A program made the translations under genes and the position numbers. A stretch of DNA of 64,000 bases, from the NCBI GenBank assembly GCA_040752915.1, contig JBFMHB010000001.1, positions 78,532 to 142,531 on the forward strand, written 5' to 3'. Positions 3,051-41,904 of the stretch are shown here, piece after piece (the first letter of the stretch is position 1; the number at the start of each line of letters is the position of its first letter). The notes beneath the pieces were generated by a model. That model did not search any database and was not told the origin of the DNA. It saw nothing but the letters and a program-made list of their open reading frames with translations. Source of the DNA: Acidobacteriota bacterium (lineage in GTDB: Bacteria; Acidobacteriota; UBA4820; DSQY01).

Positions 3051-4499
3051 ATGCTGAAGGCGTACCGGTACCAATTCAACATCGTGTGCGCCCTGTCTGA
3101 TCTGGCCGCCCTCGCCGCGGCATTCCTGAGCGCCTACCTTCTCCGCCGCGACGTGCTTCCAATCCTCATTTCGGCGCTTGCCCAAAGACCCGTTTTCCCG
3201 CTCGGCGACTATCTCCCCGTTTTTCTCCTCTCCTCCCTGGTGATCCTGGGGTGCCTGTACGCGCTGAAGGGCTACGCCCTGAGCCCGAGCCTGCCCCTCA
3301 CCTCCGCGTTCCTCCTCAACGCGCGGGCCATGGTCACCGCCTTCCTGGTGACCCTCGCCCTGGCCTACCTGCTCAAGCTGACCTTTCTGAGCCGGCTCTT
3401 TCTGGTCTCGTTCCTGCTCCTCTTCATGGCTCTTTCCACATCGCTCCGGTACGCCGCCGCCCTCTGGTTCCGGAGAGCCGCTCAGAAGGGACGCTACGTC
3501 AAGCGGGTTCTCCTGGTGGGAGCCGGCCCCCAGGCCAGGATCCTGGCCCGGCGGATCCAGGAACGGCCGGAGCTCGGCGTCCAGGTCCGCGGCTTCCTGA
3601 GCGTTCCGGGCGTGGACTCCGTCGAAGACGTCTCCCAGATGACCGGATTCGGCATTCAGAACCTGGGCGAGGTCACCGCCCTCCCCGCCCTCCTCGAAGC
3701 CGAAGTGGTGGACGGAGTCATCTTCTGCGTCACCGCGGGGAGCCTTGGGGCCTTCGAGGACCTCTTCCTCATGTGCGAGGACCAGGGTGTGGATACGCTC
3801 GTCGCCGCGAACCTCTTCCCGCACCTCGTGGCCCAGGTCCACCTCGAGCGTCTGGAGGAGCTTCCCCTACTCCGCTTCACGACGATCCCCCACAACTACA
3901 TCGCCCTTTTCCTCAAGAGGACCCTCGACCTGGCCGCCTCGGCCCTGGGCCTCCTCGTCCTGTCGCCCCTTCTGGTTGTCGTGGCCGCCCTCATCAAGGC
4001 CACCTCCCGGGGACCCGTTCTCTTCAGCCAGGAAAGGGTGGGCCTCCACGGGCGCCGCTTCATGTGCCACAAATTCAGAACCATGGTGCAGAACGCGGAG
4101 GAGCTGAAGGCCCACCTCACCCACCTGAACGAAGCCGACGGCCCCGTCTTCAAGATCCGCCAGGATCCCCGCGTCACCCCCGTGGGCAGGTTCCTCCGCA
4201 AGTTCTCCCTGGATGAGCTTCCCCAGCTCTGGAACGTCCTGGTTGGCGACATGTCCCTCGTGGGTCCCCGGCCGCCCATTCCGTCGGAAGTGGACAAGTA
4301 TGCCCGCTGGCAGAGGAGGCGGCTGTCCATGCGCCCTGGAATCACTTGCCTGTGGCAGATTTCCGGCCGGAGCGAACTGGACTTCGACACGTGGATGCGG
4401 CTGGACCTCCAGTACATCGACCACTGGTCTCTGACCCTGGATTTCGTCATTCTCGCCAAGACCCTTCCCGCCGTCCTCTCCACGCGCGGGGCCGCCTGA
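3051..4499 (+). CDS. Polyprenyl glycosylphosphotransferase (bacterial sugar transferase, WcaJ/EpsB/WbaP family)
   Basis: N-terminal multi-TM region, a central linker, and a C-terminal Bac_transf domain: LVLSPLLVVVAALIKATSRGPVLFSQERVG, RPGITCLWQISGRSELDFDTWMRLDLQYIDHWS, DELPQLWNVLVGDMSLVGPRP. Confidence 0.9.
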   Translation: MLKAYRYQFNIVCALSDLAALAAAFLSAYLLRRDVLPILISALAQRPVFPLGDYLPVFLLSSLVILGCLYALKGYALSPSLPLTSAFLLNARAMVTAFLVTLALAYLLKLTFLSRLFLVSFLLLFMALSTSLRYAAALWFRRAAQKGRYVKRVLLVGAGPQARILARRIQERPELGVQVRGFLSVPGVDSVEDVSQMTGFGIQNLGEVTALPALLEAEVVDGVIFCVTAGSLGAFEDLFLMCEDQGVDTLVAANLFPHLVAQVHLERLEELPLLRFTTIPHNYIALFLKRTLDLAASALGLLVLSPLLVVVAALIKATSRGPVLFSQERVGLHGRRFMCHKFRTMVQNAEELKAHLTHLNEADGPVFKIRQDPRVTPVGRFLRKFSLDELPQLWNVLVGDMSLVGPRPPIPSEVDKYARWQRRRLSMRPGITCLWQISGRSELDFDTWMRLDLQYIDHWSLTLDFVILAKTLPAVLSTRGAA

Positions 4500-23948: not shown

Positions 23949-24686
23949 CTAAATCCCGTAGGCCTTCAAGTCGAAGGGAAAGGCGGCGCGCTGAGCGGCC
24001 ATGAGGCGGTCGATTCCCCCGGCCGCCACGGCGAGGAGCGCGTCGAGATCGGCTTTGGAAAAGGGCTCGTGCTCGGCGGTTCCTTGCACCTCGATGAACC
24101 GCCCGTCATCGGTCATGACGACGTTCATGTCCACCTCGGCGATGCTGTCCTCTTCGTAGTTGAGGTCCAGGATCTTCTCGCCCCGCAGAACGCCCACGCT
24201 GGTGGCCGCCACCATGTGTTTCACGGGAAAGGTCTTGATGAGCTTGGCCTCGGCGAGGTGATGGAAGGCCAGAACCATGGCCACGAAGGAGCCCGTGATG
24301 GCCGCCGTGCGGGTTCCGCCGTCGGCCTGAAGGACGTCGCAGTCGATCCAGACGGTGCGGTCCGGAAGGGCCGAGAGGTCGGCCACCGACCGGAGCGAGC
24401 GGCCGATGAGCCGCTGGATCTCCTGGGTGCGGCCCGACTGACGGCCGCGGGACGCCTCGCGCGGCGTCCTCTGCTGGGTGGACCCCGGGAGCATGCCGTA
24501 CTCGGCGGTGATCCAGCCCTGCCCCGTCCCTTTCATGAAGGGCGGAACCCTGTCCTCCACGGTGGCCGTGCAGAGAACCTTGGTGCGCCCGCACTCGACC
24601 AGGCAGGACCCTTCCGGGAAGGCCACGAAGCCCGGGTGGATGGCCACGGGTCTCATCTCGTTCGCGCTGCGTCCGTCGTTCCTCAT
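23949..24686 (-). CDS. rph: Ribonuclease PH
   Basis: Start at [13 protein letters not shown] (reverse ATG 24686..24684), with an ATGA overlap onto the murI stop. Blocks [39 protein letters not shown] match RNase PH. Confidence 0.9.
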
Positions 24687-25528
24687 GGAAGAACCAACCT
24701 TTCTTCGGATACGGGCCTCAATTCGGGAACGGGTTCGCCCAGGATCCTTTCGCCCACATCGCGAAAGTGCGTCCCCGCATCGGTGACGTAACAGGTGAGC
24801 CGGCCGCGCGGGGCCCCCGGAACGGCAGGCTTCAAGGAGGGCGCGAGGGCATCGGCGGCGGCGGCGGCCGAGGAGATCAACGCCACGCTCGGGCCTGCCA
24901 CCTCCGCCAGCACGGGGATGAGGACGGGGTAATGAGTGCAACCGAGAATGAGCGTGTCCACCCGGCGCTCGAGGAGGGGTGCGAGGTAGCGCGCCGCCAC
25001 CTCCCTGGCCACGGGATCCTCGGCCCAGCCTTCCTCCACCAGGGGGACAAAAAGGGGGCAGGGCTCGGAGAAGACCTCAATCGCGGGATCCAGTCTCGCC
25101 AGAGCGCTCGCGTAGGCCCCGCTCGCCACCGTGGCCCGCGTCCCGATGAGCCCCACGCGGCCATTCCTTGTAGCCTTCGCGGCGGCTTCGGCCCCTGGAC
25201 CGATCATGCCCAACACGGGCACCGGCAACTCCTCTTTCAGAACTTCCAAGGCAAGGGACGATGAGGTGTTGCAGGCCACCACGAGGTGGCGGATCCCCCG
25301 CCCCGTCAGAAAGCGTCCGATCTCCCGGGAATAGCGCACCACCGTCTCGGGCGACTTGTTTCCGTAGGGAACCCTAGCCGTGTCTCCGAAGTAGAGGATG
25401 TCCTCGCCGGGAAAGGCGCGGCGGATCTCCCGGACCACCGTGAGGCCGCCCACCCCCGAGTCGAAGACGCCGACGGGGCCCTTATTCACCCGCGACTCCT
25501 CCCAGCCCTTCGGATCGGCGCAACTCAA
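24683..25528 (-). CDS. murI: Glutamate racemase
   Basis: [22 protein letters not shown] and ILGCTHYP (both catalytic Cys regions). The start may be a downstream GTG. Confidence 0.9.
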
Positions 25529-26075
25529 GGCCCAGAAGGCGGTTTTCGGGGCAGATGGGCTTGGAGAGGTCCAGGTGGCCGAGGAGGGTGTCCGTCTCGC
25601 GGCCTTCGATGAGGACCTGCACGGATCGGATCTCGGGGAAATTCCAGACGAGCGTGTTGACGATGCCGTAAATGCGATGGACCTCCGTGTGAACGCCGCC
25701 TCCGGAGGTCACGGGTCCTCCCAGGTCCACCACGGCCCTGGCTCCCGAAACAAGGTACAGGGCCCGAAGGGTGCAGTGCTCGGGAAAAGGGGAAAAGCGC
25801 CCCTCCCCGGCGGGCCCCTGAATGTACCTCGACACGAGGAGGGCCATGGACTCCTCGGGCGTGGCGCCGGCGGCCATGCGGACCTTCTCCGCGTGAAGCA
25901 GGCCGTCCTCCGCGGACGGGTAGAGGAGGGTCCTTTCCGCTTCGTCCCCCTCCGGCACGGCGACGGAGGGCCCGCCCTCCGGTGAGGGTGTGGGCGCCCC
26001 GCCTCCTCCGCAGCCGAGCAGATAGACCAGGGGGAGGACAAGCAGGAAGGCGAATGCCCGCCGGTCAGGGGACAT
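25482..26075 (-). CDS. GerMN-domain lipoprotein
   Basis: Lipobox LLGC after a signal peptide. GerMN-like blocks LYLVSGARAVVDLGG, IYGIVNTLVWNFPEIRSVQVLIEG, GHLDLSKP. Confidence 0.6.
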   Translation of the reverse strand: MSPDRRAFAFLLVLPLVYLLGCGGGGAPTPSPEGGPSVAVPEGDEAERTLLYPSAEDGLLHAEKVRMAAGATPEESMALLVSRYIQGPAGEGRFSPFPEHCTLRALYLVSGARAVVDLGGPVTSGGGVHTEVHRIYGIVNTLVWNFPEIRSVQVLIEGRETDTLLGHLDLSKPICPENRLLGLELRRSEGLGGVAGE

Positions 26076-27615
26076 CGGCCGGCGCCGCGGGGTTTTCATA
26101 CCGCTCCTTGAAGGCCGCCACGGCCTCGGCGAGGCCGCGGGCCACCTGCTCTTGGAAGGATGGATCGTTCACTTTTCGGAGGTCATCACCGTGGGTCAAG
26201 AAGGCCACCTCCACGAGCACCGCGGGCATGCGCGCCCCTTCGAGCACCGCGAAAGGGGCCTGGCGGACGGACCGGCTGGCGGTTCCAAGGATGGAGTTCA
26301 GGTTCTGCTGGATGGTCTCGGCGAGAAAGGCGCTCTCCACAAGGAAGGCTGTCTGGGCCATTTCCCAAAGGACGAGATGGAGGCCGGACCCGGTATCGGT
26401 TCCCTGTCCCTCCAAATTTTCCTTGGAAGCCAGTTCGCTGGCCCAGAGGTCCGTGGCATCCCGGCTCATGAAGTAGACCTCGGGGCCCCTCGCGCCGGGC
26501 GCGGGGGAAGCGTTGAGGTGGATGGAGAGGAACAGGTCGGCCTGATTGAAGTTGGCGATGGCGGTCCTCTGCATCAAGGAAACAGTGGAGTCCTCCGTAC
26601 GCGTCAGGACGACCTTGAGTCCCTGCGCCTCCAGCAGAGGAACCAACCTCTGGCTCAGCTCGAGGGCGATGTCCTTCTCGGTCCGCCCACCGGGAGCGAC
26701 GGCTCCTGTGTCCCCTCCCCCGTGGCCGGGATCGAGGACGACGACGTCCAGGGCAGGCGTCTTCACGGGCATTTCCTTGGCGAATGATGTCCCAGGTGAC
26801 TCGGGAGCCGACGCTGCCGGCTCCGGCGGTAGCCCTGGCCCTGCATTCCCGGATGGAGGCGGGGCGGGGACCTGCTGACTCTCCCCCTTCACGGCCAGGA
26901 CAAGCCGTTCAGGGTTTCTGAGTTTGAGGATGTCCAGCTTCTTGAACCGGTCCCCCAGGTCGACCCGAAGGACCTTCCCTTCGCGGTCCGGGGCCACCCG
27001 CTCCACGATGCCCCTCCCGAGTTCGTGGGCCGGCGCGGAGAAGGCGCCGCTCCTGAGCCGCACCAGGACCTCTCGTCCCGACCGAGTCACCTCCGCCCCC
27101 GTCACCCCCTCCCCGGCCAGGGTGATGCGAACGAAGTCCGCGCTCACCGCCGTGTCCACGGTGACAGCCTGTCCGGAGCCGGCAACGCTCTTCACCGGAG
27201 GAACGACCTGGACCATGGGTTTGGCCTCTTCGCCGAGGATTCGAACCGGGCCTCCGAGCGCTTTCGGGAGCACGTTCGTCAGGAATTCCTCGGGGAGCCA
27301 CAAGCAGCCCTCGGCCTCCCTCGGCACGTGGGCCATCTTCACGATCTGGCCGTCCAGGGAAACCATCGGAGAGGCCGTGGACACGAGAATGCGCCGCCCG
27401 CCGAGGAGAAGCGCCGGGTAGGAGGAGACCGAGTCCTTCCCCACGGAGCCCTTCAGATGACGGGCGAGCTCGTCGGCGCAAACCCAACGGACCCCCTGAT
27501 AGACCCTCTCCCGCACCGAAAACAGGCCCGTCGGGGCCGAAACGTCCATCGCACGAAAACCGACGGCAAGGAGGAGGGCCGCCCCCGCCGACAGCGCGCC
27601 TCGATTCAGCTTCAT
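26065..27615 (-). CDS. N-acetylmuramoyl-L-alanine amidase (AmiC-like: AMIN domain + Amidase_3)
   Basis: Signal peptide, then an N-terminal AMIN-like beta domain, a Pro-rich linker, and an Amidase_3 catalytic domain with LDPGHGGGDTGAV, Zn-ligand E (KDIALE) and H (SIHLNA). Confidence 0.85.
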   Translation of the reverse strand: MKLNRGALSAGAALLLAVGFRAMDVSAPTGLFSVRERVYQGVRWVCADELARHLKGSVGKDSVSSYPALLLGGRRILVSTASPMVSLDGQIVKMAHVPREAEGCLWLPEEFLTNVLPKALGGPVRILGEEAKPMVQVVPPVKSVAGSGQAVTVDTAVSADFVRITLAGEGVTGAEVTRSGREVLVRLRSGAFSAPAHELGRGIVERVAPDREGKVLRVDLGDRFKKLDILKLRNPERLVLAVKGESQQVPAPPPSGNAGPGLPPEPAASAPESPGTSFAKEMPVKTPALDVVVLDPGHGGGDTGAVAPGGRTEKDIALELSQRLVPLLEAQGLKVVLTRTEDSTVSLMQRTAIANFNQADLFLSIHLNASPAPGARGPEVYFMSRDATDLWASELASKENLEGQGTDTGSGLHLVLWEMAQTAFLVESAFLAETIQQNLNSILGTASRSVRQAPFAVLEGARMPAVLVEVAFLTHGDDLRKVNDPSFQEQVARGLAEAVAAFKERYENPAAPADVP

Positions 27616-27755
27616 TCGGGCTCCCCGTCCCGCCTTGCGGGACACCAGCGCATTGTACCGATCCCCGCCCTCCCTCGCAATGGAGGCGCGCCCCTCGGGG
27701 GGGTCTCCGGCGGCCTTGACCCTGGCTCCGCTTCTGCGCTATCGTTCTGGTCGGC

Positions 27756-27831
27756 GCGGGCGTAGCTCAGTCGGTAGAGCGCGAGCTTCCCAAGCTTGAG
27801 GTCGCGGGTTCGAGACCCGTCGCCCGCTCCA
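27756..27831 (+). tRNA. tRNA-Gly (anticodon CCC)
   Basis: Manually folded cloverleaf: acceptor GCGGGCG/CGCCCGC, D-arm GCTC-AGTCGGT-AGAGC, anticodon stem CGAGC/GCTTG with loop TTCCCAA (U33-CCC-A37), T-arm GCGGG-TTCGAGA-CCCGT, discriminator U73, encoded CCA. Confidence 0.85.
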
Positions 27832-27842
27832 GAGAATCCGAA

Positions 27843-27874
27843 GAGGGAGGCTGTGCCTCCCTTTCTTGTTTCTG
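27843..27874 (+). terminator. Rho-independent terminator-like hairpin after tRNA-Gly
   Basis: GGGAGGC-tgt-GCCTCCC stem-loop followed by a TTTCTTGTTTCT U-rich tract. Confidence 0.5.
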
Positions 27875-28058
27875 CGGATTCGAAGGCAAAAGGGTCGAGA
27901 AGGGCGGGACACGCCGAGGCGTTGCCGCGAGAACGCGACCGAGGAGGGAGCGTTCGCAGCGCAACAACGCCCGGCGAGAGACCCGCCCCGGGAACCGTAG
28001 GCGCCGTTGCGCGCGCAAGCGGCCGGACTCCGACGGCCGCGAGCACGCTACGGCGCGT

Positions 28059-28085
28059 AGGTTCGAGACCCGTCGCCCGCTCCAG
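28059..28085 (+). repeat. 27-nt direct repeat of the tRNA-Gly 3' end (T-arm + acceptor 3' strand); putative att-site remnant
   Basis: GGTTCGAGACCCGTCGCCCGCTCCAGA occurs at 27807..27833 (inside the tRNA) and again identically at 28059..28085, with no 5' half of a tRNA upstream of the second copy. Confidence 0.7.
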
Positions 28086-28094
28086 AATACCCAA

Positions 28095-28124
28095 AGAGGG
28101 AGGCCCAGCCTCCTTCTTTTTTTT
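28095..28124 (+). terminator. Strong Rho-independent terminator after the duplicated tRNA 3' end
   Basis: GGAGGC-cca-GCCTCC hairpin followed by TTCTTTTTTTTT; near-identical in sequence to the hairpin at 27843..27874. Confidence 0.55.
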
Positions 28125-28353
28125 TGGCTCTCCTGAAGAATCTGTGCAGACCCCCGAGGGGAACCGCCGTCCGCAGCAGGCGAATGGCGACCTTCCGGCG
28201 CATTGAGGAAAAGTCGATCCGCAAGGCCCCGCCTCCATTGCGCCCTCCGCCCCGATGGCATACCCTTGCTCCTTGCCATCCTGGAGGGAGGGCGGGGGGC
28301 CGCGGAAATCAAGAACTCGGCGCCCGCGGGACTCCGAACCCGCCGGAGGAGAC

Positions 28354-31077
28354 ATGGAAGGTCTGGTCATCTTGCTCCTGGCGGCCGTTCTCCTGGGAGG
28401 CCCCGTGGTGGCCCTCACCCTTGCGATTGTGGCTCTGGTCCGAGGCAACCGGCTCCGACGCAACCTTCTCGATGCCCTGGATGACCAGCGCCGGGAATTG
28501 CAACACCTTCGAGCCCAGCTTGCGAAACTCCACTCCGATCTCGCGAGGAGCGATGGTCCCCCAGTTGAAAGGAGCCCCGGTCCCGCCTTGCCCCTTGAGG
28601 CTCCAACGGAACTCCCCCCGTTGGCGCCGGAGCCCCTGACCCAGACCGCTTCAGATTCGATTCAGGCTCCGACGCAACCGATTCCTGACCGGACCGCCCC
28701 ACCTGCTCCACCCGTCGAGCCGCCCACGGCCTCCAGCGCACCGCCTGGGGCCGGACCGCCTCCCCAACCACCCGTCCGACCCGCCATGGGCCTGGAGGAG
28801 AAACTGGGGGCCAGGCTTTTCGTGTGGGTGGGAGCCGTCGCTCTGGCCCTGGCCGGAACCCTGTTCGTGAAGTATTCCATCGACCAGGGCTGGATCAGCC
28901 CGCCCGTGCGCATCGCATTGGGGGTCCTCTTCGGCGCGGCCCTCCTGGTGACGGGGGAGCTTCTCCGAAAGGGCTACCGACTCCTCGCCCAGGCGTGCTC
29001 GGCGGCCGGCATCGCCGACCTCTTCGCGTGCTTCCTTGCGGCGAGCAACCTGTACCACCTCATTCCGAACCTGGTGGCCTTCGCCCTCATGGGACTCACG
29101 GCCGCCGTGGGCGTGGCGCTCTCTCTTCGGCAGGGGCCACTGGTGGCCGTGGTGGGGCTCATCGGCGGCTTTTTCACGCCCTACTGGCTCAGCACGGGTT
29201 CCCACCGTCCGGGCCCGCTCTTCGGCTACCTGCTTCTGCTCCAGGTAGGCCTCCTGGCCGTCACGCGCCTGCGCAGGTGGTGGCCCCTGGCGGGTCTCAC
29301 CCTCCTTGCGGGAATGGGCTGGGCGGCCCTCTGGCTCGCGTTCCCGTTCCGGCCCGAGGACGGCCTCTGGGTGGGACTTTTCCTCCTCGCAAGCGTGGGG
29401 GCTTTCCTGGCCAGCGGTTTCGCCGGTCGGGCCGCGGCGGCCTGGGGAGACGCGCGGATCCCCCTGGGCCTCGGGTGGGCCGCCCTGGGCTCCGGCCTCG
29501 GGCTCCTCGCCGCACTGGCGGGCCGTGGCGGATTCGGCACCACGGAGTGGGTCTTCCTGGGCATCCTCGGCGCCGCCTGCCTGGCCATGGGGCGCCTGGA
29601 CGAGGCCTTCGAGGGGACGGCCTGGCTCGCGGTGATCCTCACGACGATCTTGCTCGGTCTTTGGGGGGCCGGCCTGGCTCCCGACGCCCTGGGCCTTTAC
29701 CTCGCGACGGCGGGTTCGCTGGGCGCCCTCTTCGCCTTTGGGGCCTACGCTTGCCTGTGGGGCTCCGCGTCGCCCGGCCGATGGGCCGCCCTCTCGGCCC
29801 TCTCGGCGCTGGGCGCGTTTCTGATGGCATGGCGGACCCACCTGGGACTCGTCCATGGGGGCCATTGGGGTCCTCCGGCCCTTGTGATGGCTTTCCTTTT
29901 CCTCGCGGGCGCCGTTCCCCTGGCCTCCCGCCGGAACACCTTGAAGGGCGGCGAGGAGGCCCTGGCGGCCATGGCGGCGGCCGCGACGGCTTTCGTGAGC
30001 CTGGCCGTGCCTCTGGAACTCCATCGCGAGTGGATGGCGGTGGCCTGGGCTCTGGAGGTGGCGGCGCTGTGCTGGCTGTCCGAACGCCTTCGGGTGGGCG
30101 CCCTGGCCAAGCTGGCCTGGGCCCTCGCGGCTGGCGTCGCGGCTCGCCTCCTCCTCAACCCCTTCGTCCTCGCCTACCCCACGGGGTCCACTCCTGTGCT
30201 GAACTGGATCCTCTACGGCTACGGCTTGCCATTGCTGGCCTTCGCCGCGGGCGCCTGGTTCGTCCACCGCGACCGCAAGGCACTTTCGGAGGCCCTCCAG
30301 TGGGGGGCCCTGGCCTTCGGCGGGGCCCTTCTGGCCCTCGAAGTTCGCCACTATTTTCACCCAGGGCGCCTGGACTCACCCCGGGTGGACCTGGCCGAGT
30401 GGGGCGGTTGGGTCGTGGCATGGATGGCGCTGGGGCTTGGCCTCCTTGCGGCCTCCCGCCGCTGGCCCCTTCGGTCCCTGGACTGGGGCGGGCGCCTGCT
30501 CCTTCTCGCGGCTCTCGCCCTGGCGGCGTTGGGCCCGTGCCTCGTCGCCAATCCTGCCTGGACCCGCCACCCCGTTGGGGACACGCCGGTTTTCAACGCC
30601 CTTCTCTTCGTTTACGGGGTTCCGGCCCTGCTGGTCCTGCTCGGAGCGGCGGAACTCCGGAGCCGTGGCGAAGAGAGGATCTCGCGCGTTCTGGGGGCCG
30701 GAGGCCTCATCCTCCTCTTCTGCCTTCTGACCCTGGAAATCCGCCAGGGCTTCCGGGGCAGTCTGCTTCAGGCGGGCCGCGCCACCAACATGGAGAATTA
30801 CGCGTATTCGGCGGGATGGATCCTCTTCGGGCTGGTCCTCCTGGGGGCAGGCATCGCCCGGCGATCGGCGGCCTTCCGGTACGCATCCCTCGCCGTGATG
30901 ATTCTCACCATCGGAAAGATCTTCCTCTACGACCTCGCCCACCTGAAGGACACCCTGCTTCGCGCCCTCTCGTTCCTGGGGCTGGGGACGAGCCTGCTGC
31001 TGATCGCCTACCTTTACATGCGTTTCGTTTTCCGCCGGAGGGACGAATGCGAATCCGCCGCTTCGCGGGAGTCCTGA
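28354..31077 (+). CDS. DUF2339-family polytopic membrane protein (N-terminal TM + coiled coil + Pro-rich linker + >20 TM helices)
   Basis: Start taken at ATG 28354 (MEGLVILLLAAVLLGG) with a GGAGGA RBS. Coiled-coil LRRNLLDALDDQRRELQHLRAQLAKLHSDL, a Pro-rich spacer, then ~600 aa of repeated hydrophobic helices — the architecture typical of DUF2339. Confidence 0.75.
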   Translation: MEGLVILLLAAVLLGGPVVALTLAIVALVRGNRLRRNLLDALDDQRRELQHLRAQLAKLHSDLARSDGPPVERSPGPALPLEAPTELPPLAPEPLTQTASDSIQAPTQPIPDRTAPPAPPVEPPTASSAPPGAGPPPQPPVRPAMGLEEKLGARLFVWVGAVALALAGTLFVKYSIDQGWISPPVRIALGVLFGAALLVTGELLRKGYRLLAQACSAAGIADLFACFLAASNLYHLIPNLVAFALMGLTAAVGVALSLRQGPLVAVVGLIGGFFTPYWLSTGSHRPGPLFGYLLLLQVGLLAVTRLRRWWPLAGLTLLAGMGWAALWLAFPFRPEDGLWVGLFLLASVGAFLASGFAGRAAAAWGDARIPLGLGWAALGSGLGLLAALAGRGGFGTTEWVFLGILGAACLAMGRLDEAFEGTAWLAVILTTILLGLWGAGLAPDALGLYLATAGSLGALFAFGAYACLWGSASPGRWAALSALSALGAFLMAWRTHLGLVHGGHWGPPALVMAFLFLAGAVPLASRRNTLKGGEEALAAMAAAATAFVSLAVPLELHREWMAVAWALEVAALCWLSERLRVGALAKLAWALAAGVAARLLLNPFVLAYPTGSTPVLNWILYGYGLPLLAFAAGAWFVHRDRKALSEALQWGALAFGGALLALEVRHYFHPGRLDSPRVDLAEWGGWVVAWMALGLGLLAASRRWPLRSLDWGGRLLLLAALALAALGPCLVANPAWTRHPVGDTPVFNALLFVYGVPALLVLLGAAELRSRGEERISRVLGAGGLILLFCLLTLEIRQGFRGSLLQAGRATNMENYAYSAGWILFGLVLLGAGIARRSAAFRYASLAVMILTIGKIFLYDLAHLKDTLLRALSFLGLGTSLLLIAYLYMRFVFRRRDECESAASRES

Positions 31078-39041: not shown

Positions 39042-39117
39042 GGGCCATTAGCTCAACCGGTAGAGCAGGGGACTCTTAATCCCAAGGTTGTAGGTTCGAG
39101 TCCTACATGGCCCACCA
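39042..39117 (+). tRNA. tRNA-Lys (anticodon CTT)
   Basis: Manually folded: acceptor GGGCCAT/ATGGCCC, D-arm GCTC-AACCGGTA-GAGC, anticodon loop CTCTTAA (U33-CUU-A37), T-arm GTAGG-TTCGAGT-CCTAC, discriminator A73, encoded CCA. Confidence 0.85.
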
Positions 39118-39339
39118 CCCATCCCCCCTTCACCAACCGGAATCGTGAGCGAAGGCGCCAGGATCACGGCGCCTTCGCCGCCTCTTTGCGCAAGCGGCGG
39201 CTTCGGTCGCACATCGGTGGGTCCATCCGGCGAGCCCCGGTCCACGCCTCCGGTCCCGCCCGCCGTCCCGAGGGCGCATCGGCTTGCGGCAGGCGCCCCG
39301 CCCGTTCTAAAATGAGAGGCCTATGACGGGGTTGAGCCC

Positions 39340-39837
39340 ATGAAGTCGGCATGGAATCTGCTCTGGAGGTACACACTCGGGGCGGCCGTGTCGGTTCTTC
39401 TTTCGCTCCTGCTCCTGCTCGGTTTCTTCCGGCCCTTTCGAGTGTCCGGTCAGAGCATGGCGCCCACCCTCGGAGACCGGGACCTGATCCTCGTGGACCG
39501 TTGGGCCTTTCGCCTGGGGGGGCCCCAGCGAGGCGACCTCGTCATTCTGACGGACCCTTCCGGAAGCGGGTTCCTCGTCAAGCGCGTGGCCGGGCTTCCG
39601 GGGGATCACCCCGAGGCGCTTCCCGCCTCCGCCGGGGGAGTCCCCGACGGATTCCTCTATTGCGTCGGAGACAATGCCGCGGAAAGCCTGGACAGCCGGC
39701 ACCTGGGGCCATTTCCCATGGACCGGGTTTATGGGCGGGTTCTCGTCCGCATTCCGGAGCGCCATGCCGCCCGCGTCACCACAGGGGGCCTCGCCCAGGC
39801 CATCGGGCCCGCGGCCCCTCGGAAAGAGCCGCCATGA
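39340..39837 (+). CDS. lepB: Signal peptidase I (S26 family)
   Basis: N-terminal TM, Ser box VSGQSMAPTL, Lys box VKRVAGLPGD, and a GDN box (CVGDNAAESLDSRHLGP). Confidence 0.85.
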   Translation: MKSAWNLLWRYTLGAAVSVLLSLLLLLGFFRPFRVSGQSMAPTLGDRDLILVDRWAFRLGGPQRGDLVILTDPSGSGFLVKRVAGLPGDHPEALPASAGGVPDGFLYCVGDNAAESLDSRHLGPFPMDRVYGRVLVRIPERHAARVTTGGLAQAIGPAAPRKEPP

Positions 39838-40952
39838 GCCTCGGAGCTGTTCCCCTCCAAGGCGACTACTCCCAGCTCGGCCTCCCCGAGATCCTGGACT
39901 TTCTCAAGACCACCGGGAAGACCGGCGTCCTCCTCGTCCGGAACGGGACCGTGACGAAGACCCTTCACTTCAAGAACGGCGTCGTCACCTTCGCCACCTC
40001 CAATGTGCCCGAAGAACGCTTCGGGGACATGCTCCTGCGCCAAGGCCGGATCAGCCAGGCCCAATTCGACGAGGCCAGCCGCCACGTGACCCGAGGCAAG
40101 CGGCTGGGCAAGATTCTCGTGGAAATGAAAGCGCTCACCCCCAAGGACCTCTGGAACGAGGTCCGGCGCCAGGTGCAGGAGATCGCCTTTTCCATCCTCC
40201 GTTGGGATTCGGGGTCGTTCCAGTTTTTCGAAGGGGAGGAGAAGGCGGGCGAGAACATCACGACGGCCATTTCCGTCCCGGAGCTTCTCCTGGAAGGTCT
40301 CCGACGCATCGAGGACCCGGCTCTTTTCGAACGCTACATGCCCAACAAGGACGTGGTCTTCGAGCGGGTGCTTCCGGCCCACCGCCCCCAGGGCCTCCAC
40401 TTCGAGGAATACGAGAAGCACGTCTTCCGCCTGGTGGACGGGGCACGCAGCGTCCAGGAAGTGTGCGACCTGAGCGAAATCGGGGAGTTCGAGACGCTCA
40501 AGACACTGTATATCTTCTTCTCCATCGGGTTCCTCCACGTCAAGGGCCGGAAGGACCGGTTCGAGGAGGAGCGCCGCGAGTTGAAAGAACTGGGCGGCCT
40601 CATCCGCAATTACAACGAAATGTTCTCCTTCCTGTACCACTACCTTCTGCGTGAAGTCGGGCCCATCGCGGAGAACATCCTGGAGAAGTACCTCGGACGC
40701 CTCAAGACCGTTCAACCGGAGGTTTTCGGGAGAGTCACCATCCGGAGCAACGGATCCCTCTCCGAGGAACGGCTGATCGAGAACCTGCGGGCCCTTCAAG
40801 GGGATCGCCAGGCCCTCCTGGTGCAGTCCCTCAACGAGTTCCTCTACAGCGTGCTCCTGGCCATTCGAAGGACCCTCGGGCCGGACCACGAGACCCGGGT
40901 CCTGGAGACCCTCCGCCACACGCGAAAAGACCTTTTCCGTGAGCCCTCCTGA
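39834..40952 (+). CDS. DUF4388-domain protein
   Basis: ATGA overlap with lepB. N-terminal DUF4388-like block GDYSQLGLPEILDFLKTTGKTGVLLVRNGTVTKTLHFKNGVVTFATSN, followed by ~300 aa of alpha-helical sequence with no enzymatic motif. Confidence 0.6.
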   Translation: MSLGAVPLQGDYSQLGLPEILDFLKTTGKTGVLLVRNGTVTKTLHFKNGVVTFATSNVPEERFGDMLLRQGRISQAQFDEASRHVTRGKRLGKILVEMKALTPKDLWNEVRRQVQEIAFSILRWDSGSFQFFEGEEKAGENITTAISVPELLLEGLRRIEDPALFERYMPNKDVVFERVLPAHRPQGLHFEEYEKHVFRLVDGARSVQEVCDLSEIGEFETLKTLYIFFSIGFLHVKGRKDRFEEERRELKELGGLIRNYNEMFSFLYHYLLREVGPIAENILEKYLGRLKTVQPEVFGRVTIRSNGSLSEERLIENLRALQGDRQALLVQSLNEFLYSVLLAIRRTLGPDHETRVLETLRHTRKDLFREPS

Positions 40953-41904
40953 CGGCGCCCTCTTCCCGGAGGGCCCTCTCCTCGCCTTCGTCGGTCCCAC
41001 CGCCACGGGCAAGACCCGCCTGGCGGTGGAAGCGGCGCTCCTCCTCGGGGGAGAGATCGTCTCCTGCGATTCGATGGCCGTGTACAAGGGCTTCGACATC
41101 GGGACGGACAAGCCCTCCCCAGCGGAGCGCCGGGGGGTCCCCCACCACCTCATCGACGTCGCCGAGCCGGGGAGCTTCTACTCCGCGGGCTCGTTCCGGG
41201 CGGACGCGCTGAAGGCCCTTTTGGACATCTGGTCCCGGGGGCGGACGGCCATCCTCGTGGGTGGAACGGGCCTCTACTACCGGTCCCTAACGCGCGGGCT
41301 CGTCTCCGCGCCAGGACGGCACGGAGAAATAAGGGAAAGGCTCAGCCGCCGCGCCCTGGCGCGGGGCCCCGAAGGACTGCACCGGATCCTTTCCCGGCTG
41401 GACCCCGACCGCGCCCGCGAGGTGGGCCCCCGCGACACCCTGCGGATCGTACGGGCGCTCGAGGTGCGACTGCTGACCGGGAGGCCCTTTTCCAGGTGGA
41501 TCCGGCAGGACCCGGCCCAAAAAGGAGTCACCCCGGGGCTCACGGTGGGTTTGACGGCACCCAAGCCCTTCCTCTACCATAGAATCGAGCGCCGGGTCGA
41601 GGAGATGATGGCCGCGGGCCTGCTGGATGAAGTCCGGCGGCTGAGGGAAGCGGGCCACCTTTCCGGACCCGCCTCCAAGGCCATCGGCTACGGGGAATTG
41701 GCGTCCTTCCTCGAAGGTTCCTTGGACCTGGAGGAGGCGGTCCGGCGAATCAAGCAGCGGACCCGGAACCTGGCCAAGCGCCAGCAAGCGTGGTTCAAGA
41801 AAGAAGAAGGAATTCATTGGTTCGATATCCAAGAGGAGGAATGGCGCGATGATGCCCTCGAACTCATCCAGAGATGGCGCGAAAAAGCCGGCGCCCAACC
41901 GTGA
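40939..41904 (+). CDS. miaA: tRNA dimethylallyltransferase
   Basis: P-loop GPTATGKT, SCDSMAVYKGFDIGTDKP, GGTGLYYRSL. Confidence 0.9.
   Translation: MSPPDGALFPEGPLLAFVGPTATGKTRLAVEAALLLGGEIVSCDSMAVYKGFDIGTDKPSPAERRGVPHHLIDVAEPGSFYSAGSFRADALKALLDIWSRGRTAILVGGTGLYYRSLTRGLVSAPGRHGEIRERLSRRALARGPEGLHRILSRLDPDRAREVGPRDTLRIVRALEVRLLTGRPFSRWIRQDPAQKGVTPGLTVGLTAPKPFLYHRIERRVEEMMAAGLLDEVRRLREAGHLSGPASKAIGYGELASFLEGSLDLEEAVRRIKQRTRNLAKRQQAWFKKEEGIHWFDIQEEEWRDDALELIQRWREKAGAQP

Follow-up and report, generated by a model that had tools for sequence, protein, structure and literature searches.

The RtT repeat has been an unexplained curiosity of the Escherichia coli tyrT locus since the late 1970s. This locus (NC_000913.3, 1285800-1287800), which carries tyrT, tyrV, rttR and tpr, served as a positive control here: four RtT copies are identified in it by the Rfam model RF00391, with scores of 133-138 bits. 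The 3' terminus of every copy is AATCCTTCCCCCACCACCA, identical to the final 19 nt of tRNA-Tyr, and the consensus fold contains an outer helix formed by the 5' leader GGGGAAGG and the tRNA-derived strand CCTTCCCC, followed by a GGAUGAGAA motif. Between one and ten copies are found per E. coli genome (median 3, 4738 genomes), and an internal AAGGTTCGA stretch of the body resembles the T-arm of tRNA-Tyr. According to a passage in PMC4986893, citing Bosl & Kersten 1991, RtT RNA is released from the transcripts of tyrT and of numerous further operons for tRNAs, and an effect on the stringent response has been proposed; the same passage refers to RtT copies in Actinobacillus that are expressed and adjoin tRNA genes for Asn and Lys. 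Described here is a unit of similar architecture, situated behind a tRNA-Gly(CCC) gene in a 64,000-nt stretch of the genome of an Acidobacteriota bacterium (the window, to which coordinates refer unless a retrieved locus, labelled L with a number, is named; the E. coli locus is L064). The term 'unit' denotes the spacer behind the tRNA together with a second copy of the tRNA end.

A sequence-only reading of the window had pointed out that this tRNA-Gly gene is followed by a 27-nt duplicate of its own 3' end, with a near-identical terminator hairpin and T-run behind each copy, and had proposed that an integrated island had been lost from between the two. The duplication is confirmed. Positions 27807-27871 and 28060-28124 constitute a direct repeat of 65 nt with 83% identity, of which the first 27 nt are exact, and both hairpins are present (27842-27864 and 28093-28119). 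The first copy had been placed correctly at 27807..27833, while the second, given as 28059..28085, was one base too low and lies at 28060-28086. With up to three mismatches allowed, the 25-mer GGTTCGAGACCCGTCGCCCGCTCCA, which covers G52-A76 of the tRNA, has exactly two occurrences in the window and none in 100 shuffles. Although the spacer had been described as lacking an open reading frame (ORF), mechanically called ORFs do span it (e.g. 27796-28206 on the plus strand and 27767-28312 on the minus strand); none is credible, because the region shows the covariation typical of an RNA. That it holds no 5' tRNA half proved correct, as ARAGORN and Rfam find neither a tRNA, a 5' half nor any Rfam family there, and the second copy is not part of an intact second tRNA detectable by either. 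The window has a single unit (approximately 27890-28085), with no further units or remnants found elsewhere in it, including 28086-28360 and the region after the tRNA-Lys gene.

A genome scan with the flanking amidase protein returned no relatives; these were obtained through protein homologues and contig look-ups, and the amidase homologues identify the source of the window as an Acidobacteriota MAG (metagenome-assembled genome). One such locus (L005), from the MAG GCA_037444825.1, has a flanking amidase 56% identical to that of the window. Its tRNA-Gly(CCC) gene is followed by a linker, a body of about 190 nt, an exact second copy of the 3' end of its own tRNA and a terminator, with another unit starting before the end of the contig. 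The two loci are 85% identical, and the differences within the hairpins are compensatory. The same arrangement of tRNA-Gly(CCC) and unit is present in L047, L028 and L038, and there is no larger island between the repeats in any relative compared. Hence, while the direct repeat of the tRNA 3' end and the duplicated terminator are what the excision of an island between attL and attR might leave behind, the spacer is conserved, with compensatory changes, between deeply diverged MAGs and behind many tRNAs. As the sequence-only reading had itself named a conserved, structured spacer in relatives as the observation that should overturn it, the scar explanation is refuted and can be regarded as extremely improbable, whereas the att-like duplication from which it started is real. 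Its fallback suggestion, a very small mobile or repeat unit, stays viable.

The most conserved part of the body is the 19-mer CCGCCCCGGGAACCGTAGG, which was used as a probe of a species-representative genome collection. It matched 37 genome loci, 34 of which have a unit or unit fragment; the other three look like chance matches. By source label, 33 of these 34 are Acidobacteriota, Thermoanaerobaculia or Aminicenantes MAGs, and one is a Chloroflexia MAG. A two-part pattern search of metagenomes added 16 loci, and a covariance model (R1) built from 27 distinct units identified 73 units or fragments in 54 sources, comprising Thermoanaerobaculia-type Acidobacteriota MAGs and metagenomes. When Rfam was searched, both at the gathering threshold and at E<=10, no match was found in the spacer or in eight other unit loci; weak matches to the sX4, permuted-tmRNA and plastid models at unit loci merely overlap the tRNAs. 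The literature on tRNA-linked tandem repeats and miniature integrative elements likewise yielded nothing specific. These sequences represent a well-supported, previously uncatalogued family of structured RNAs or repeats of about 200 nt, absent from Rfam and belonging to one group of Acidobacteria. The Chloroflexia-labelled contig (L013 172-346, L054 121-295) carries a unit behind tRNA-Glu(TTC) that is cut off within the long 3' hairpin (P3, below) and has no tRNA tail; this contig may be misbinned.

Within a single MAG the motif is found on up to eight contigs, often at their ends, and contigs from independent assemblies terminate in or beside units (L001, L005, L026, L027, L031, L034, L039, L042, L047 and L063). 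Masked or gap N-runs also lie inside arrays of units in L017, L020, L023 and L028. As the repeats break short-read assemblies, the array lengths reported here are underestimates.

Every unit with a tRNA or transfer-messenger RNA (tmRNA) gene upstream in its locus lies 3' of that gene, or of a preceding unit, and on the same strand. The host genes are those for tRNAs Gly-CCC, Gly-TCC, Lys-CTT, Leu-CAA, Leu-CAG, Leu-GAG, Leu-TAG, Trp, Ala-CGC, Ser-GCT, Ser-TGA, selenocysteine (SeC) and Glu, together with tmRNA; several other units are preceded by a tRNA pseudogene or 3' half, and the rest mostly lie at contig ends. Remnants of tRNAs precede units on the minus strand of L016 (449-600), L051, L062 and L056 (2939-3050), where ARAGORN calls no tRNA; among them are a Ser-like sequence without an acceptor 5' strand and a tRNA-Lys 3' half ending in CCG.

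The tail of each unit is specific to the tRNA it follows. Counted from the CCA, exactly 25 nt (G52-A76) are identical between tail and upstream tRNA in most complete units, as checked for 11 tRNA species (Ala, Gly-CCC, Gly-TCC, four Leu species, Lys, Ser-GCT, Trp and SeC), and one tail behind tmRNA matches at 23 of 24 positions. The junction of body and tail reads GCG(T/C)A-GGTTCGA, the hyphen marking the boundary. Units stand singly or, behind Lys, Leu-CAA, Gly-TCC, Ala and tmRNA, in tandem arrays whose periods number from two to at least four (L019, L020, L023, L045, L053), each period consisting of the sequence from T-loop to CCA, a linker and a body. These arrays are often closed by a truncated body (L019, L026, L028, L031), and L044 has a decaying copy. 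The presence of units is polymorphic: tRNA-Gly(CCC) has none in L006-L010, and while the tRNA-Lys(CTT) of the window (39042-39345) has none either, relatives have between half a unit and four or more behind the orthologous tRNA. Some arrays (L024, L043) end in a terminal hairpin of leader and tail without a body, and other leader-like motifs without bodies are represented by GCGGATTCGAAGGC in the window and by nested CGA(G)AAGG repeats in the linkers of L017, L019 and L040. These may be the footprints of body deletions, or empty sites.

The fold was derived by applying RNAalifold to an alignment (A2) of the 27 distinct units. The consensus contains 47 pairs in seven helices, arranged as a four-way junction of P1, P2 with H1, a mini-hairpin and P3, in which P2 stacks on P1 and carries the modular hairpin H1 (Table 1). 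Paired combinations occupy 96.8% of cells, compared with 83.9% after shuffling, and compensatory double changes occur at 23 pairs. The covariation score of 0.340 was reached by none of 500 shuffled alignments, for which the score was 0.115, and fell to 0.085 or below when the partners were slid. In the window itself, the spacer (27872-28086) folds with -123.9 kcal/mol.

Table 1. Features of the tRNA-Gly(CCC) locus and of the unit behind it, in coordinates of the window.
Feature	Coordinates	Strand	Basis
tRNA-Gly(CCC), intact, CCA encoded; host gene of the unit	27756..27831	+	ARAGORN; Rfam RF00005, 68.1 bits
Direct repeat copy 1: tRNA G52 to CCA plus 2 nt; imperfect extension to 27871	27807..27833	+	Repeat search; exact 25-mer
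Linker between tRNA and unit, with terminator-like hairpin T1 (27842-27864), T-run and leader-like motif GCGGATTCGAAGGC (27874-27887)	27832..27889	+	Sequence; leader consensus
5' leader = P1 5' strand AAGGGTCGAGAA; pairs with the tRNA-derived T-loop/T-stem 3' strand 28062-28073	27890..27901	+	Alignment A2, columns 16-27 with 189-200; leader-tail tuning p<1e-4
P2 5' strand GGGCGGG, nearly invariant; pairs with 27982-27988	27902..27908	+	Helix 2, 98.4% of cells paired
H1, a long hairpin built from three stacked helices, its internal loops rich in GA; variable module	27912..27976	+	Helices 3-5, 11/16 pairs compensatory
P2 3' strand CCCGCCC and mini-hairpin CGG-GAA-CCG (27989-27997); most conserved core, 19-mer CCGCCCCGGGAACCGTAGG	27982..27997	+	Alignment and fold
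Long hairpin P3	28001..28056	+	Helix 7, 8/11 pairs compensatory, 98.7% paired
Junction GTAGG (RNA: GUAGG); tRNA identity starts at its last two Gs	28057..28061	+	Alignment; tail comparison
Direct repeat copy 2 (tRNA 3' end): P1 3' strand (28062-28073) and 3' tail (28074-28084; acceptor 3' strand, discriminator U, CCA)	28060..28086	+	Repeat search; exact 25 nt
Trailer: terminator-like hairpin T2 (28093-28119) and T-run; 83% similar to the T1 region	28087..28125	+	Repeat and terminator search

The closing helix P1 links this fold to the tRNA. An average of 10.05 of 12 positions pair when each leader is matched with its own tail, against 8.99 ± 0.17 with permuted tails (p < 1e-4), showing that leaders are tuned to the tRNAs they accompany. 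The leader corresponds to the reverse complement of the T-loop region, for instance GGGTTTCGAA against TTCGAAACCC in L005 and GAGGGATTCGAA against TTCGAATCCCTC behind tRNA-Trp, and for this reason the idea that it directly copies the T-arm of the tRNA was rejected. A genuine T-arm at the 3' end of the unit was also rejected, since GTAGG, which would be its 5' strand, forms poor pairing, and covariation links T-loop positions 59-60 to the leader. In several units an imperfect pairing appears to run on into the acceptor strand, leaving an NCCA overhang. A decayed tandem duplicate of the tRNA gene would fit the 3' end identical to that of the tRNA and the loose similarity of the leader to the acceptor and T-stem 5' strands. 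However, no cloverleaf, tRNA or tmRNA model matches the unit, the same body is found behind unrelated tRNAs and the leader is the T-loop sequence reversed and complemented, such that a pseudo-tRNA is hardly credible.

The most variable module is H1, which exists as at least two sequence types (A and B) as well as longer, insert-bearing forms. In two MAGs (L021 5310-5575 and L011 about 3410-3480, both on the minus strand), H1 is interrupted by one and the same AT-rich insert, about 100 nt long (AAGTATGAAGTATGAA...TTAATTCAACCTTCA), which may represent a small nested element or another variant of H1. The strand of the fold can be assessed through the relative frequency of G.U and A.C combinations, which in the model-fitted alignment stand at 46:23, modestly favouring the tRNA-sense strand. 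The z-score of the window spacer is -6.2 on the plus strand and -4.3 on the minus strand.

The comparison with RtT (RF00391; rttR, tpr; 178-bp repeats) reveals extensive likeness in design. In both cases tandem units lie directly 3' of a tRNA on the same strand, end with the tRNA's own 3'-terminal sequence including the CCA, in the window as throughout the family, and are closed by an outer helix of the leader with the tRNA-derived T-stem and acceptor strand, which for the acidobacterial units is evident from the covariation of P1. A motif of the GGAUGAGAA type follows the leader in some acidobacterial units, and the copy number of both repeats is polymorphic. By contrast, the acidobacterial unit is larger (about 195 nt compared with 130 nt), with the long hairpin P3 as an addition and a junction of another form; it copies more of the tRNA, 25 nt starting in the T-loop rather than 19 nt; and the units are distributed behind at least 12 tRNA and tmRNA genes per lineage instead of being confined to one locus. 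RF00391, which has a gathering score of 45 bits, does not match window positions 27600-28400 or eight unit loci even at E<=10, and applying model R1 to the E. coli locus gives weak matches driven by the tRNA end. By analogy of architecture, the unit is regarded as a deep-branching counterpart of the E. coli RtT repeats that is not itself a member of RF00391.

A similar arrangement, in which the 5' and 3' ends of an RNA pair around a large body and the NCCA tail is that of a tRNA acceptor, is known from tmRNA and other tRNA-like structures, such as mascRNA. The unit differs in that its T-loop pairs with the leader, as the covariation at positions 59-60 indicates, instead of forming a T-arm, and in that its acceptor sequence changes with the neighbouring tRNA. 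The models of Rfam clan CL00001 and ARAGORN detect the upstream tRNA or tmRNA, but never the unit.

The genomic positions of the units bear on whether they are transcribed. Units are found inside core, essential transcription units, as in L041, with the order thrU-tyrU-glyT-unit-thrT-tuf-tRNA-Trp-unit-secE-nusG. The linkers behind tRNA-Lys and tRNA-Leu-TAG are only 18-26 nt, which is too short for a terminator. The location in core operons and these terminator-less short linkers make transcription through such units very likely. No promoter-like site was found in the linker between tRNA and unit in the window.

The explanation favoured here, to which a probability of roughly 60% is assigned, is that the unit constitutes an RNA module of the RtT-like kind and shares a transcript with its tRNA, that the copied tRNA end supplies its closing helix and NCCA tail, and that the flanking direct repeats drive its expansion, contraction and precise loss through unequal recombination. 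The unit would be transcribed within the tRNA precursor or operon, and its end would be matured like the 3' end of a tRNA, by analogy with the release of E. coli rtT RNA from the tyrT transcript. Unequal homologous recombination between the tRNA-end repeats could then duplicate, contract or remove units while leaving the tRNA undamaged. Bodies would be homogenised or spread within a genome by joining at the T-loop sequence GGTTCGA, which is near-universal. Such an RNA might serve the host, in tRNA processing or in a starvation response as proposed for RtT, or might be only a tolerated passenger.

Several considerations weigh against this explanation. In the window, and at some Gly, Leu and Ala loci, a terminator-like hairpin that is a copy of the tRNA's own terminator stands between tRNA and unit, so expression at these loci would need read-through; transcription of the units is itself a prediction from their position in operons. 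As no homology with RtT is detectable, the functional analogy is architectural only. The strand test gives a ratio of merely 2:1, on a model-fitted alignment, and the folded form may therefore also be a single-stranded DNA substrate. The units furthermore behave in part like selfish repeats, with presence/absence polymorphism, truncated or decaying copies (L006, L008, L019, L026, L028, L044) and contig breaks. Finally, unequal recombination explains the arrays but leaves unexplained how a body arrives behind a new tRNA with the appropriate 25-nt tail.

Bodies were also compared with one another. Those behind different tRNAs of the same genome are on average more alike (mean identity 0.89) than those behind the same tRNA in different genomes (mean 0.83). 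The Gly-CCC and Leu units of MAG014 have bodies that are 0.95 identical, and those behind Leu-CAA, Leu-CAG and Lys in BP9.bin43 are near-identical. This within-genome similarity across different tRNAs implies that bodies are either homogenised or spread within genomes. L007 (1212-1507, minus strand) and L008 (1313-1504, minus strand) share an identical amidase (P0019), and the assemblies diverge exactly inside the unit. In L007, tRNA-Lys is followed by a full unit with a Lys-side leader and a tRNA-Trp-type tail and then secE-nusG-rplK, whereas in L008 it is followed by the 5' half of a unit and then a peptidase S26 gene. Either units located at different tRNAs have recombined, or one assembly is chimeric through the repeat.

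An autonomous source of mobility was sought in the neighbourhood of the units. Of the 43 largest window ORFs, 30 were scanned, and no integrase, transposase or reverse transcriptase (RT) gene was found in this set, nor beside any unit when the flanking ORFs of roughly 60 loci were clustered. The only recurrent flanking proteins are orthologous neighbours and ABC ATPases. No gene resembling TnpB, IscB or Cas was detected among the clustered flanking ORFs or in the window, and the body has no match in viral contig, phage or plasmid collections. A minus-strand match to a group II intron domain occurs in one unit-carrying MAG contig (L039 897-973), which at 39.7 bits falls slightly short of the gathering score (40); this suggests an RT-bearing intron.

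These results bear on the proposal that the unit is a non-autonomous integrative mini-element, similar to the cis-mobilizable elements (CIMEs) that retain att arms, moved in trans by a tyrosine recombinase with its crossover in the T-loop. The copies of the tRNA end would then be attL and attR, and the arrays the product of repeated integration. As with such elements, a direct repeat of the 3' part of a tRNA flanks the insert, and units accrete in tandem at one tRNA. The repeat runs from G52/G53-T54 in the T-loop to the 3' end of the tRNA, a span that would match the T-loop integrases reportedly described by Williams in 2002. The hosts also include the classic island targets tmRNA, SeC, Leu, Ser, Gly and Lys; all arrays have a single orientation; the internal linker of Lys arrays is unlike the final trailer; and the strand test is weak. 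Against this, the unit is a gene-less segment of about 200 bp with RNA-like covariation, and no cognate tyrosine or serine recombinase or related autonomous element was found in the window ORFs scanned, the flanks or the viral, phage and plasmid collections. Where one integrative element is expected to use one tRNA, near-identical bodies stand behind at least 12 tRNA and tmRNA genes with the correct tail each time, although conservative recombination would produce chimeric tRNAs on passing from one target to another. Neither compensatory changes in the hairpins nor a leader tuned to the tRNA is expected of arms bound by a protein. An origin by such integration is consequently considered unlikely.

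MITEs (miniature transposable elements that have inverted repeats) and the repetitive extragenic palindromes of bacterial interspersed mosaic elements (REP-BIMEs) offer a related comparison, being likewise small, non-coding, multicopy and rich in hairpins, with termini that P1 resembles; they too break assemblies and occur as truncated and nested copies. However, the acidobacterial units are strictly targeted to tRNA 3' ends, one of their terminal repeats is the sequence of the target tRNA, and they have a multi-helix junction with conserved unpaired nucleotides. Instead of shared terminal inverted repeats and a short target-site duplication of fixed length, as in MITEs, the P1 termini vary with the host tRNA and the flanking repeat ranges from 25 to more than 100 nt.

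The arrival of bodies behind new tRNAs might alternatively be explained by an element that is mobile at the RNA level, a self-propagating parasite of tRNA genes. The leader would act as an internal guide for the T-loop/T-stem strand, and the tRNA 3' end would be captured either through template switching by an RT on a mature, precursor or terminated tRNA, or through ribozyme transesterification at G53/U54, with recombination returning the product to a position behind the gene of that tRNA. The repeat stops exactly at the mature CCA end behind Trp, Gly-TCC and Ser-GCT and in the final Lys unit, and at the end of the terminator T-run in the window. As both of these are 3' ends of RNAs, an RNA-templated step is hinted at, but the CCA boundary could equally be due to selection, or to gene conversion, acting only on the tRNA segment. 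The tRNA-specific pairing of leader and tail and the greater similarity of bodies within genomes than across genomes at the same tRNA are both in keeping with this model, and the intron-like domain of L039 would imply a source of RT. Nevertheless, no RT gene lies beside any unit, no known ribozyme family in Rfam matches, and the cleavage and ligation activity and the complementary DNA intermediate are purely hypothetical, making the model quite unlikely. If it were true, the family would form a previously undescribed class of bacterial retro- or ribozyme elements, with E. coli RtT as an independent or a degenerate case.

The combination of a conserved scaffold and a variable 3' segment identical to adjacent genomic DNA is also reminiscent of a guide RNA gene, with a scaffold like that of the omega-RNA of TnpB and the tRNA 3' end as a 3' guide that would bring a nuclease or recombinase, encoded at another location, to tRNA genes. 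The bases 5' of the match do differ, being GGG in the tRNA and GTA in the unit, as might serve discrimination between self and non-self. However, units are not adjacent to a nuclease gene in the way of omega-RNA, given the results for TnpB-, IscB- and Cas-like genes above; half of the putative guide is sequestered in P1; the units stand in tandem arrays inside tRNA operons; and no guide-scaffold family in Rfam matches. Such a function is very unlikely.

Whichever process spreads the units, the design of RtT, in which a structured element follows a tRNA and is closed by a helix drawing on a duplicate of that tRNA's 3' end, recurs in a distant phylum without detectable homology. The acidobacterial family extends over at least 12 tRNA and tmRNA genes and is diverse enough for strong covariation, which suggests a general and recurrent tie between tRNA genes and passenger or regulatory RNAs. 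It also constitutes a data set on which the structure, the processing signals and the mode of spread, by DNA recombination or an RNA-templated step, can be tested. In practical terms, the units interrupt the assembly of metagenomes at tRNA loci and may be misread as att sites or as scars of integration.

The locus in the window is flanked on one side by an Amidase_3 gene (26065-27645, minus strand), and the DUF2339/DUF3999 gene pair noted by the sequence-only reading does follow the repeat. Genes for two proteins of tRNA metabolism lie a few kb from the two tRNA genes of the window, namely RNase PH (tRNA 3' trimming; 23952-24941, minus strand) and MiaA (tRNA modification; 40939-41901, plus strand). 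Their synteny with the tRNA genes is retained in relatives, and is probably a coincidence.

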